In this document: in pieces, positions 49,160 through 53,610 of the stretch
Numbering within the stretch: the first letter of the stretch is position 1
Layout of the letters: each line of letters opens with the position of its first letter
From: a virus
Taxonomy: Duplodnaviria; Caudoviricetes
Reading direction: 5' to 3' (one strand)
Length of the DNA stretch: 57,035 bases
Virus record (IMG/VR): IMGVR_UViG_3300045303_000150
Location: 1 to 57,035 of that record
Made by a program: the position numbers and the translations under genes
The notes under the pieces: model-generated
The model's database searches: none
What the model was told of the DNA's origin: nothing
The model's input: the letters and a program-made list of their open reading frames with translations, nothing else

Positions 49160-49378
49160 ATGCACGAGAAGCTCAAGGCCGAAGCCGTCCGCCTGGACAA
49201 GCTGCTGGCCAAGCAGGAGGCCCACGAGCCCACCGAGCAGGAACGCGCGCTGGATCGCATCGTCGCCGCCAAGCAGCAGGCGTTCGCCGAAGCCAAGCAG
49301 CGCAGCCGACGCGGCCAAACGGACCGCAACTATCAGGGCAAACACCGCAAGCCCAAGAAGGGGAGGCACGAGAAGTGA
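49160..49378 (+). CDS. small basic helical protein
   Basis: RBS; ends Y.GKHRK basic tail. Confidence 0.75.
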   Translation: MHEKLKAEAVRLDKLLAKQEAHEPTEQERALDRIVAAKQQAFAEAKQRSRRGQTDRNYQGKHRKPKKGRHEK

Positions 49379-49581
49379 GCGAACCGGTCACTTTCCAGAT
49401 GTTCATCAACGGCCGCGAAGCCGTCCTGAGTGCCCAGGAAAAGGGCTCCCGGCTCCGTGCGCTGGAGCGCGGCGAGCGCGAGGCCGAGACCCATCGACAG
49501 GTGGTCATCTCGGAACAGCACGGTGACGCCCCGCCGTGGACGCTGGCCAGCTGGGTCGACGGCGTCAAGACGACCGGATGA
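49375..49581 (+). CDS. small paralogue family member A
   Basis: GGAGG RBS, GTGA overlap; FQMFING...ASWVDG. Confidence 0.7.
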   Translation: MSEPVTFQMFINGREAVLSAQEKGSRLRALERGEREAETHRQVVISEQHGDAPPWTLASWVDGVKTTG

Positions 49582-49787
49582 GCCGGGACCGGGGCAACGA
49601 GGACCGTGCCCTGATCTACACGGTCAAGCTGGACGGCACGGAGAGCGATCCCAAGCGACGCGCGGAGGCGTTCACCCATGCGACCAAGAAGGCCGACCGC
49701 CACGAGGTGGTCTGCATGCTGAAGCACCGACCCGGCAAAGCGCCGGTCGTAGTCGCCTTGTGGCGGAATGGAGTGCGTGAGGTATGA
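49578..49787 (+). CDS. small paralogue family member B
   Basis: ATGA overlap; YTVKLDG...ALWRNG. Confidence 0.7.
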   Translation: MSRDRGNEDRALIYTVKLDGTESDPKRRAEAFTHATKKADRHEVVCMLKHRPGKAPVVVALWRNGVREV

Positions 49788-49981
49788 GTGACGATGTGAC
49801 CTACTCGGTGTGGGCCGACGGGCGCTGCAAGGAGATGAACATCCTGACGCCTCAGGCCGCCGAGAAGGCGGCACTGAAGCTGGTGGACTCCAAGGCCTTC
49901 CGGCTGGTGACCATCTTCAAGATCACCGAGAACGCCAACATCGGCCACGCCGAGTGGATCGAGGGCGAGCGCATCCTGTGA
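49784..49981 (+). CDS. small paralogue family member C
   Basis: ATGA overlap; YSVWADG...AEWIEG. Confidence 0.7.
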   Translation: MSDDVTYSVWADGRCKEMNILTPQAAEKAALKLVDSKAFRLVTIFKITENANIGHAEWIEGERIL

Positions 49982-50223
49982 TCGTCACCGAGGGCCCAGG
50001 GCGTGGCGAACCCTGGGCATGCGACACGACCGAGGACGACTCTGGCAACCAGAACACGCGGCGCTGGCACCGTGCCTATTTCGCCGTGCGCGGCGACGCC
50101 CGCCGGTGCGGTCAGAGCGCGGTCAACGTGCGCGGCGGGGTGATCATGAAAGCCGTGCTGCTCCGGATGGGCGACGACGGTTCGTACTACCCGATGGGCA
50201 CGTACGTCCGCCGCGATCCCTGA
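49978..50223 (+). CDS. small paralogue family member D
   Basis: GTGA overlap; YFAVRGDARR...LLRMGDDGSY. Confidence 0.6.
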   Translation: MIVTEGPGRGEPWACDTTEDDSGNQNTRRWHRAYFAVRGDARRCGQSAVNVRGGVIMKAVLLRMGDDGSYYPMGTYVRRDP

Positions 50224-50225
50224 GC

Positions 50226-50254
50226 TTGACAGCCCCCCAGTCGGGGGGTAAAGT
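50226..50254 (+). promoter_or_regulatory. palindromic-spacer promoter driving the ncRNA
   Basis: TTGACA-17-TAAAGT with CCCCCC-AGTC-GGGGGG; no RBS follows. Confidence 0.85.
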
Positions 50255-50412
50255 ACAGGACATGCAGGACGAACCGAGACGGCTAGTCCCCTAGGCACCC
50301 AGTAGTCCTGCAAGGCGGGTGGTGTAGCACGCACCCCAGAGGTAGTAGGCCGAGTGACTCCGGCTGAACCCGACGGAAGACCAGGAGCAGCGACCCTGGA
50401 CCGCCGCCCCAA

Positions 50413-50489
50413 CGTCCCGCCAGAAGCTCCACGGTGGACAGCCCTCGGTGCGCGCCAGGGCTGGCGAAGTTCGACTCTTCGGGGGACGG
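50413..50489 (+). ncRNA. degenerate tRNA-like domain 1
   Basis: CGTCCC/GGGACG acceptor-like stem, AGCTCCACGGTGGACAGC D-like arm, T-arm CGAAG-TTCGACT-CTTCG; irregular anticodon arm. Confidence 0.5.
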
Positions 50490-50638
50490 CAAGGTCAGCG
50501 CCCGCAGAACCTTTCTCGGCGGGTGGGGATAGCTCGCACATCCTCAGGTTCGCCCGGCACACCGGGCGGCAACTGTGCGGGGGCAACGGCCTAACCGATC
50601 GGCGTGGAGAGGTACCGCGAAGCGCCGTACGAAGGGTC

Positions 50639-50704
50639 GTGGGTGTACGCCAACTGGAAGAGCGGTGGCTGCATGCGTTGCGGGTTCGAGTCCCGCCACC
50701 CACG
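50639..50704 (+). tRNA. tRNA-like element lacking a normal anticodon arm (pseudo-tRNA)
   Basis: Perfect acceptor GTGGGTG/CACCCAC, D-loop with GG, T-arm GCGGG-TTCGAGT-CCCGC; only 15 nt between D and T arms; no encoded CCA. Confidence 0.65.
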
Positions 50705-51660: not shown

Positions 51661-51890
51661 GTGTCGATATGCGGACCGCGCCATATTGCGTGACCGTGAC
51701 CACCCACACCACGAACACCGTGACCGGCTGGGAAACCCCGGAACGGGCGCTCATGCAGGCGGCCATGCTGCACGCGGCGCGCAAAGGCCATGAGCACCTG
51801 GGCTGGTGGGCGTGCGACGTGAAGCAGCGCACCGGCCGCGACAAGTGGCGCACCATCCAGAAGTTCAGCGTGGGGCGGGTGGTCCTGTGA
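51657..51890 (+). CDS. small paralogue family member H
   Basis: GTGA overlap; YCVTV..GWETPERA...A..DVKQRTG.DKW. Confidence 0.7.
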   Translation: MSVDMRTAPYCVTVTTHTTNTVTGWETPERALMQAAMLHAARKGHEHLGWWACDVKQRTGRDKWRTIQKFSVGRVVL

Positions 51891-52399
51891 TCTACGCGCT
51901 CGCCTGGATCATCGGGATCTGCAACCCGCTGTCCGCGCTCCTGGTCGGTCCGTGGCTGGCCCGTCGCGTTGCCTGGGCCCGGAAGGCTCAAGGCGTCGGC
52001 TGGGCGCTTCTCGCGCTCGCTCAGGTCGCCTTCCTGGCGTTCGGGTTCGCCAGCCAGCTGGACGGCTTCCGGTTCGCTCAGCCGCTCATGATTCCGCTGG
52101 CACTGATGAACTTCGCCGCGTGGCTGAGCATGCGTCGCCCGTCGGCGCGTTCGGCCGAAGCAGGTGCGCGCGCCGTGCAGGCGATGGCGGAAGGAATGCG
52201 GGTCGCACAGGTTGCCGAAGTGCTGCTGCGCATGGATGCGGAGCAGCAGCGCATAGACGATGAAGGCGACGCTGAGCTGGCCTGGTACTACTACCGCGAA
52301 GAGGTGGAAGACGCTCTGGGTCTTCCCTCGGGCGCGCTGGACTCGGCCGATTCAATGTCGTGGGAACCTCTCCTTGACTCCCCCGACAACAGGGGGTAA
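51887..52399 (+). CDS. membrane protein
   Basis: GTGA overlap; 3-4 hydrophobic helices then acidic tail; stop codon lies inside the next -10 box. Confidence 0.65.
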   Translation: MIYALAWIIGICNPLSALLVGPWLARRVAWARKAQGVGWALLALAQVAFLAFGFASQLDGFRFAQPLMIPLALMNFAAWLSMRRPSARSAEAGARAVQAMAEGMRVAQVAEVLLRMDAEQQRIDDEGDAELAWYYYREEVEDALGLPSGALDSADSMSWEPLLDSPDNRG

Positions 52400-52435
52400 A
52401 GTTCACCTCAGCGGAACAACGAGAGGAGACCCGCA
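52374..52435 (+). promoter_or_regulatory. palindromic-spacer promoter cassette
   Basis: TTGACT-17-TAAAGT; GGAACAAC 52413; GGAGACCCGCA-ATG. Confidence 0.85.
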
Positions 52436-52663
52436 ATGCCACGAGGACGCTACGGCGCATTCGCCCAGCGCAAGCCGCACGGCGAATGCAGCAAGGGCCA
52501 CGAGATCTTCGAAGAGAACAAGCTCAACGGCACGTGCCGCGCCTGCACCACCGCCCACAAGTGGGCCAGCCGCAACAACCTGTTCAACGACGACCCGCGT
52601 GCCATCGCGCGGGCCAATGAGCTCTACGCCAAGTACCGCCAGCAAGCCGGAAAGGACTCCTGA
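52436..52663 (+). CDS. small Zn-binding protein
   Basis: CSKGH....N....CRAC motif. Confidence 0.75.
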   Translation: MPRGRYGAFAQRKPHGECSKGHEIFEENKLNGTCRACTTAHKWASRNNLFNDDPRAIARANELYAKYRQQAGKDS

Positions 52664-52665
52664 TC

Positions 52666-52854
52666 ATGGCTCGCAAGACAATTCGATACAGCCTCAACGA
52701 GGGCGAATCGATTGAGGACGCTCAGGACTTCATCGAGCGCGAGTACCCCGGCGTGCGCGCCGTGTCCGCCGTCCGCACCGAGGGGCCCGGCACCTACTCG
52801 CTCACCTTCTCCGGCACCGGCCCCGGCATGACCAAGCTGAACAGGGACTGGTGA
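52666..52854 (+). CDS. hypothetical protein
   Basis: AAAGGA RBS. Confidence 0.7.
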   Translation: MARKTIRYSLNEGESIEDAQDFIEREYPGVRAVSAVRTEGPGTYSLTFSGTGPGMTKLNRDW

Positions 52855-52888
52855 CCATGTCAGAGATCAACTTCACGATCCGTACCTG

Positions 52889-53365
52889 ATGGCGCAGAAG
52901 AGAGCTCGAAGCCTGAGCCGCGTGGGGCGGTCTGTGGTCAACACCAGTCGCCCCGCACGGCCTGGGCGAGACAAGTCAGGTGCGCCGCCCCTGCCCGTGC
53001 TGCCAGTCGTGCCCCTGGACGTGTACCGGCCAGGGCTGGAGCTGGAGTTGGTGCAGGCGATCGCGTACGCACGCGGTCAGGACCACACGCTGTCCCGCCA
53101 GTTCGGGGTGAGCGTCAGTACGGTGTCCAAGATCCGACGCGGCAAGCACGCCGCCCAGCAGTGTCGAGAGGATGACGAAGTGCTGTACCGCGCATGGTCG
53201 ATGGAGGGTCGCACGACGTGCGTGGGGATAGCCACGCACCAGCTCGCACGGGCTGAGGCCGACGCCCGCATTTTCATCAGCGAGCACGGCGTGTCTCAGG
53301 TGGACATTCAGCAGAAGAAGGGCGTGATCTGGACTCGGATAGACACGCTGCACGCTCCCGCTTGA
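52889..53365 (+). CDS. HTH protein fused to a paralogue-family domain (member I); start uncertain
   Basis: LSRQFGVSVSTVSKIRRGK HTH; C-terminal LYRAWS..A...A..VDIQQKKG..W. Confidence 0.6.
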   Translation: MAQKRARSLSRVGRSVVNTSRPARPGRDKSGAPPLPVLPVVPLDVYRPGLELELVQAIAYARGQDHTLSRQFGVSVSTVSKIRRGKHAAQQCREDDEVLYRAWSMEGRTTCVGIATHQLARAEADARIFISEHGVSQVDIQQKKGVIWTRIDTLHAPA

Positions 53366-53427
53366 CACCCCCCACAAAGGGGGGTAAAGTTCTCTTCATC
53401 AGGAACGACCAACCAGGGAGAACCGAA
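53362..53427 (+). promoter_or_regulatory. palindromic-spacer promoter cassette
   Basis: TTGACA-17-TAAAGT; GGAACGAC 53402; first 32 bp identical to the copy at 56736. Confidence 0.85.
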
Positions 53428-53610
53428 ATGCCAAGCACCGACCTCTACCGGGCCCACTCCACCGCGAAGACCAGCGAGCTGGTGAAGACCTACCGGGAGG
53501 CCATGGCACTGGCCGCCGGTCAGATCGCGGACCAGATCGCCACCGACGTGGACGTGGAGGGCAGCACGGACGGCGGCCGGACCTGGAAGGTGCTGGGCAC
53601 CACCAAGTAG
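53428..53610 (+). CDS. small paralogue family member J
   Basis: AGGGAG RBS; LYRAHS..TYREA..LA..VDVEGSTDGGRTW. Confidence 0.75.
   Translation: MPSTDLYRAHSTAKTSELVKTYREAMALAAGQIADQIATDVDVEGSTDGGRTWKVLGTTK

Follow-up and report, generated by a model that had tools for sequence, protein, structure and literature searches.

The window analysed here is a 57,035-nucleotide (nt) DNA that represents a whole IMG/VR virus record (IMGVR_UViG_3300045303_000150), carries direct terminal repeats, is rated complete and has a G+C content of about 66%. On its plus strand, ten small open reading frames (ORFs), designated A to J, lie on both sides of a non-coding stretch that may give rise to an RNA. A preliminary description had proposed that the ten are divergent paralogues that form an RNA-plus-protein-array system with this putative RNA; if true, a diversified ten-gene array around a long phage RNA would represent a new kind of ribonucleoprotein system. 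No result of our analysis supports such a system. The locus is probably an ordinary cluster of small accessory genes carried by a novel virus of the actinophage type, and as part of this reading the ten ORFs are likely to fall into several unrelated sequence families. A repeated promoter-plus-leader cassette would cut the locus into short transcription units, and A, B and probably C would be tandem duplicates that have since diverged in charge. The evidence reduces the proposed array to a commonplace string of small phage genes in which three appear to be local duplicates of a new family.

Tailed phages are known for small genes of unknown function that are arranged in tandem and coupled in translation in their early or accessory regions. 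The locus resembles these arrays, as they are generally known, in its 60- to 90-residue proteins, its stop/start overlaps and its short promoter-headed units, as well as in fast turnover between relatives and occasional local duplication. It differs from the usual arrays in one respect, given that a 713-nt non-coding stretch with a promoter and a terminator hairpin lies between one unit's promoter and its leader.

The ten reading frames and the A/B/C family

The ten ORFs described earlier are present, and all are real coding frames. The G+C content at the third codon position (GC3) is 0.80-0.95 in every one of them versus 0.38-0.55 at codon position 2, which is the bias of genuine high-GC genes. 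Lengths are given in amino acids (aa) and charge as the isoelectric point (pI).

A, 49375..49581, plus strand: 68 aa, pI 5.6; certain member of a new small-protein family
B, 49578..49787, plus strand: 69 aa, pI 9.9; certain member of the family of A
C, 49784..49981, plus strand: 65 aa, pI 5.2; probably a third member of the A/B family, strongly diverged
D, 49978..50223, plus strand: 81 aa; by profile unrelated to A/B/C
E, 50937..51200, plus strand: 87 aa, pI 9.4; no family
F, 51197..51427, plus strand: 76 aa; collinear but non-significant resemblance to G
G, 51427..51660, plus strand: 77 aa, pI 10.2; one external homologue, P0012
H, 51657..51890, plus strand: 77 aa, pI 9.9; no relation to the other nine
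I, 52889..53365, plus strand: 158 aa
J, 53428..53610, plus strand: 60 aa; sole gene of the unit behind the promoter at 53362-53390; non-significant resemblance to the C-terminus of I (Ic)

Only one pair within the ten stood out when all 136 pairs among 17 local proteins were aligned by the Smith-Waterman method, each against 300 shuffles, and this was A-B (z 5.4). F-G (z 3.8) and A-C (z 2.8) lay at or under the level of two pairs that nobody had claimed, D-u4 (4.9) and C-I (4.6); D-E and I-J fell outside the best 30 of the 136 pairs. The mean z was 0.43 for pairs within the ten versus 0.38 for all other pairs. With blastp among the same 17 proteins, the best pairs within the ten were A-B, with an expectation value (E value) of 0.019, and F-G (0.09). 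An all-against-all hhalign comparison of 27 profiles (351 pairs) placed A-B (P 2.7e-4) and A-C (P 1.2e-3) near the top, directly behind u2-u4, u3-u4 and u2-u3; F-G (P 0.024, rank 21), Ic-J (P 0.042, rank 32) and D-E (P 0.51, rank 245) were unremarkable, and family models of G and D did not single out F and E. The pairings D/E, F/G and I/J that had been read from short motifs do not stand out among the 351 pairs, and the shuffle tests agree.

We searched exhaustively with a profile hidden Markov model (HMM) built from the A+B alignment, at a threshold E value of 1e-3 or less. The 16 matches comprised A and B themselves, five long repetitive proteins and nine small proteins of 65-75 aa, all of the A/B type (P0020, P0022-P0028 and P0030). 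The long proteins, with immunoglobulin-like or other repeats (P0018, P0019, P0021, P0029 and P0031), were dropped as non-homologous given that only the C-terminal part of the profile matched, roughly positions 25-69 and several times in each. The nine small proteins form a bridge between A and B: the N-terminal RDRG-ED motif of B is found in some, and P0020 has the shorter N-terminus of A. When the 812 six-frame ORFs of the window were scored with a model made from these nine outside members alone, B (E value 5.8e-20) and A (5.5e-12) were recovered. By sequence, A and B are certain paralogues.

C was the best non-member among the 812 ORFs in hmmsearch, at an E value of only 0.17-0.28. Compared by hhalign with A7, a 17-sequence alignment of the family in which P56, W62 and G65 (B numbering) are invariant, C aligned full length and collinearly over 59 columns (P 7.6e-5, probability 62%), with the C-terminal W and G kept and the invariant P absent. 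These alignments make C a probable third member. A7 also reproduces the pairing of TFQMFING with IYTVKLDG and that of the C-terminal W-x-x-G, both first noticed by eye. The other seven proteins gave no such signal. Against A7, D to J reached P 0.19-0.66 at a probability of 0.3% or less, as compared with P of at least 0.042 for 22 control ORFs of the right arm, and in hmmsearch with the nine-member model none of them placed above an E value of 2. The proposal of tandem duplication with strong divergence therefore holds for A and B with certainty and for C with probability, but for the other seven neither sequence nor profile bears it out.

Homologues outside the window are P0002 (85% identical) and P0005 (69%) for A and P0006-P0009 for B. 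The contigs that bear homologues are metagenomic (Logan/ENA/JGI) and 23.6-59.8 kb long, with longest lengths of 23,623, 38,730-48,197, 56,018-56,450, 57,446, 57,784 and 59,756 nt; those with the outside family members are mostly of 56-60 kb. The A/B/C family is new and hitherto unnamed, with members so far solely on metagenome contigs. Scans of IMG/VR (E, the B family, P0028 and A10), of JGI metagenomes (the B family and P0028) and of GTDB (A10) returned no true relative. An IMG/VR locus (L088) in which only the C-terminal motif matched, in a frame without coding bias, was judged spurious, as were three JGI matches of only 19 residues (L089-L091). The family is split by charge, B being basic (pI 9.9) versus A (5.6) and C (5.2), and B-type members keep a basic loop that contains the invariant proline and connects the last two long strands.

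Named families did not account for the ten proteins. None of them passed a Pfam or NCBIfam cut-off, and none matched a PHROG at an E value below 1e-3. Word-indexed protein searches gave a single external homologue for D (P0016), and for C, E, F, H and J only the window's own proteins. In the ESM Atlas, E and B met no named family, their feature scores (0.77-0.85) were at the level of shuffled proteins, and their structural neighbours were unnamed or under the bar. Profiles A7 and A9 found nothing below an E value of 0.15 among PDB sequences. The nearest named family was DUF2188 (PF09954), a functionally uncharacterised set of small proteins from bacteria and phages that resembles the A/B family in size. 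Weak matches to it came from two of the 17 sequences in A7 (best E value 0.0047), short of its gathering cut-off of 22 bits. None of the ten window proteins matches it, and the Pfam model finds nothing in the six frames of the genome at an E value of 10 or less.

AlphaFold2 models were made for two of the ten proteins, B (with alignment A7) and G (with P0012 and F). The model of B has a predicted local distance difference test score (pLDDT) of 88.7 and a predicted template-modelling score (pTM) of 0.72, with elements H5-10, E14-18, H28-39, E44-49, E57-63 and E66-68 (H, helix; E, strand). That of G has a pLDDT of 90.9 and a pTM of 0.74, with E7-14, E17-25, H27-44, E49-58 and E63-73. The strand-strand-helix-strand-strand layout that had been read from the sequences is borne out in both, and the predicted fold of the A/B/C family is a four- to five-stranded sheet packed on one helix. 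A defined new family that can be folded with confidence is useful in itself. No solved structure matched B significantly by Foldseek against the PDB (best E value 1.1). Among viral structures in BFVD, the best match to B was J7F8Y1 (E value 2.2e-4), followed by many small uncharacterised phage proteins; the best viral structural neighbour of G, likewise a small phage protein without characterisation, had an E value of 0.016. J7F8Y1, a 61-aa protein of Agrobacterium phage 7-7-1, is like B in size, phage origin and fold (template-modelling (TM) scores 0.72/0.80, root-mean-square deviation 1.5, 58 columns). It differs from B in sequence, with 22% identity and no demonstrated sequence-level link, and lies outside the 50 listed structural neighbours of G; being uncharacterised, it names no mechanism.

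We considered that all or most of the ten might descend from one strand-strand-helix-strand-strand ancestor that was duplicated in tandem and diverged past sequence detection. B and G, which belong to different proposed subgroups, are both confidently predicted as hairpin-helix-hairpin with the elements in the same order, the proteins are of similar size (60-87 aa for the most part), the genes are coupled end to end, and the short motifs on which the grouping was based are present in the sequences. However, this order of elements is very common among proteins of 60-90 aa, and the neighbour lists of B and G have 1 of 50 listed entries in common, which is weak for B (TM 0.34). In addition, D to J scored no better than the control ORFs against the family profile, the mean shuffle z was the same within the ten as elsewhere, and the nine outside members are confined to the A/B type and to 65-75 aa. 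Taken together, we find a common origin of the ten unlikely.

Several observations weigh against separating the ten into unrelated families. The shared element order of B and G leaves room for a very old common origin. F and G, direct neighbours of the same size, align collinearly over 54 columns, a stronger likeness than their P value suggests. Low power is a further limit for C, E, F, H and J, which entered the tests as single sequences because no external homologues were available for building profiles. Lastly, three of the protein searches were run with mixed alignments and no more than 100 words and may have missed homologues; the metagenomic run X2 (see below) holds relatives of E, F and H that they did not return.

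As members of an ordinary accessory block, A/B/C and the neighbouring small proteins would be independently folding binders of host or phage partners in early infection, which is the usual role of such small phage genes.

Promoter-leader cassettes and the non-coding stretch

A strikingly regular promoter-leader cassette recurs in the window and could serve to map the transcription units of this phage. In its strict form, TTGAC-N2-C4+ ... G4+-TA-N-AGT with a 17-nt spacer that holds a C-run/G-run hairpin, it is found in 5 copies versus 0 expected. The core GGGGGTAWAGT has 13 exact copies on the plus strand, at positions 398, 9233, 26843, 30016, 43169, 46665, 47841, 49111, 50244, 52392, 53380, 53664 and 56754. 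All 13 have a -35 box and a spacer with a C-run/G-run hairpin, and downstream of each stands a similar leader: some 15 nt, then a GGAACGAC box, then a ribosome site of the GGAGA type, 34-39 nt ahead of the start codon. Given the spacer hairpin and the conservation of the leader box, the copies may share a regulator or a processing site. The features that organise the locus are listed below.

49093..49121, plus strand: promoter-like cassette TTGCCA-17-TAAAGT with C-run/G-run spacer hairpin; heads u1-A-B-C-D
49160..49378, plus strand: u1, 72 aa, basic, helical-looking; first gene of the upstream unit, with a GTGA overlap with A
50226..50254, plus strand: promoter-like cassette TTGACA-17-TAAAGT; heads the non-coding stretch
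50255..50910, plus strand: non-coding stretch, putative RNA, between D and E
50866..50901, plus strand: terminator-like hairpin of 16 bp with TTTCATTT after it, where the non-coding stretch ends
50913..50936, plus strand: leader box GGAACGAC ... GAGGAGA before E (box proper 50913-50933), without a promoter of its own
51887..52399, plus strand: m1, 170 aa, N-terminal half hydrophobic; closes the coupled chain E-F-G-H-m1

GTGA or ATGA junctions join u1/A, A/B, B/C, C/D, E/F, G/H and H/m1, and F and G overlap by 1 nt (TAGTG). The overlaps are as described earlier for four genes on each side of the putative RNA, but the chains are five genes long on either side (u1-A-B-C-D and E-F-G-H-m1) because the junctions extend to u1 and m1. 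Given that u1-A-B-C-D starts from the promoter at 49093 and ends at the promoter of the putative RNA, A to D would be on a transcript other than that of the RNA; the stop codon of D is located 2 nt upstream of the -35 box of the RNA promoter. No promoter-like site was seen in 50254-52374. Because E-F-G-H-m1 has a full leader but no recognisable promoter, its expression probably depends on read-through of the terminator. The m1 stop codon falls within the next promoter, and the remaining units are n1, n2 and I behind the promoter at 52374, J behind that at 53362 and the next genes behind that at 53646.

The gap of 713 nt between D and E is non-coding, with codon periodicity absent from 50224-50931 (0.64-0.68 G+C at each of the three positions). 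Just downstream of the RNA promoter, at 50273, there is a partial leader box, GGACGAACC. Given this partial box and the complete leader at 50913-50936, the stretch is flanked by two leader copies, and it looks as if it had been inserted into a standard promoter-leader unit. The genes would lie near the RNA through the layout of the transcription units, and the non-coding stretch could serve E-F-G-H-m1 as a long transcribed leader or as an attenuator by way of the terminator at 50866-50901. The five promoterless genes downstream make this terminator a candidate control point.

Known RNA classes were sought in the non-coding stretch. Rfam, scanned over the whole window, gave no family at gathering score there, and ARAGORN found neither a transfer RNA (tRNA) nor a transfer-messenger RNA. 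A degenerate tRNA-like element at 50639-50704 scored 30 bits with the tRNA model (E value 6e-4 in a 1.2-kb scan); its acceptor stem and T arm are intact and its D and anticodon arms largely missing. The folding energy of the stretch was no better than that of shuffles (z 0.25), and no iterons or repeats were seen in it besides the hairpin and one 12-nt pair.

Leader boxes of the same kind (GGAACGAC ... GGAGA) are also found at 1110-1129 and 56425-56444 with no exact core directly upstream, as before E, and a one-mismatch promoter core is present at 56396. Between the stop codon of J and the next promoter, at 53611-53646, lies a hairpin (CACCGGGGG ... CCCCCGGTG) that may terminate the single-gene J unit.

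Relatives of the locus and other readings of it

Run X2 contains short contigs of a relative with about 92% nucleotide identity over the genes. A differs at 10 positions in 163 nt and B at 16 in 190 nt; E and F are together on one 503-nt contig (41 differences), and G, H and the start of m1 are on one of 585 nt (41 differences). Coverage also extends to n1 and n2, to part of I and to the start of J. The non-coding stretch fits in pieces only, with joints that skip 50406-50490 and 50584-50703. In place of 52833-53008, 174 nt in which n2 ends and I begins, one X2 contig carries 1147 other letters. Judging from this gene-sized replacement, I may have been annotated with a wrong start at 52889, or it may be able to do without its N-terminal part; the in-frame GC3 of I is weaker upstream of about 53000. 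Among 40 listed X2 differences, with 180 more outside the listing, 21 are synonymous when taken singly (5 of 13 in B, 6 of 10 in G and 10 of 17 in H).

A scan of IMG/VR with the promoter pattern returned one other phage, G001 (56,668 nt), which is complete and more distant. It has the same promoter type at three places (L083/L087) and shares the terminase C-terminus (40%) and three other proteins with the window virus. G001 has none of A to J and no stretch similar to the non-coding one, and its right arm had no Rfam match. A match of G001 to the frame of J was set aside, as it covers only promoter-encoded residues.

These comparisons bear on the possibility that the locus serves counter-defence, as a set of small, diversified inhibitors of host immunity under a helix-turn-helix protein, I. 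The small orphan genes turn over rapidly, C, E, F, H and J are without homologues in the big protein searches, X2 carries the 1147-nt replacement, and in B, 8 of 13 listed differences would each on its own alter an amino acid. However, a search of PHROGs gave nothing to link any of the genes to a known inhibitor, and I and A to H are in different transcription units. The helix-turn-helix matches of I, at residues 62-90, are weak and all lie below the cut-offs (best E value 0.0043). We consider this function very unlikely for the locus.

A second possibility is that some or all of the proteins bind the adjacent RNA as a ribonucleoprotein, which is the core of the array proposal. The genes adjoin the RNA, E to H are probably co-transcribed with it, four of the proteins (B, E, G and H) are basic at pI 9.4-10.2, and the B-type members retain the basic loop with its proline. 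On the other hand, no RNA-binding domain was recognisable in any of the ten with Pfam, PHROG or NCBIfam, A and C are acidic, and A to D are driven by another promoter. The genes and the RNA also fare differently between relatives: X2 keeps the genes at about 92% identity and the RNA stretch only piecewise, and G001 has the promoter type but neither A to J nor a matching non-coding stretch. The predicted folding energy of the RNA is not unusual either. We therefore give RNA binding by these proteins a slightly lower standing still.

Least probable of all would be a new module of mutual RNA-protein control, in which basic A/B/C members bind nucleic acid through a conserved loop, R-x-G-K/R-x-P, reminiscent of the proline-tipped arm of HU/IHF-type proteins, the acidic A and C act as their partners or mimics, and the 650-nt transcript with its tRNA-like element gates E-H-m1 at its terminator.

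The virus and neighbouring genes

The virus is of the actinophage type and has no close sequenced relative. Its portal-like protein (3772-6414) shares no more than about 35% identity with the portals of Microbacterium and Arthrobacter phages. Among 50,697 GenBank phage records, the locus had no DNA match by megablast or blastn, and B, E, F and G had none by tblastn at E values of 0.1-1 or less. The large terminase is encoded at 39714-41510; when the 17 local proteins were compared by tblastn with 80 IMG/VR loci encoding relatives of this terminase, the best E value was only 0.03. The window sequence is itself present in a soil metagenome, run X1, from which it may originate.

The clearest paralogue family of the region lies outside the ten ORFs. 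It is a trio closely upstream of them on the plus strand (48251-48463, 48430-48633 and 48898-49074), encoding proteins of 58-70 aa with the common pattern C-x2-C ... W-x2-C-E-x-W-H. In pairwise comparisons, the three gave blastp E values of 3e-6 to 9e-5, shuffle z values of 6.3-9.4 and hhalign P values of 1e-5 to 3e-5. One of them has a sub-threshold zinc-ribbon match (PF23546, E value 0.0035). Judging from its alignment scores (z 2.6, P 0.02), n1 (52436-52663) may be a distant fourth member of this family.

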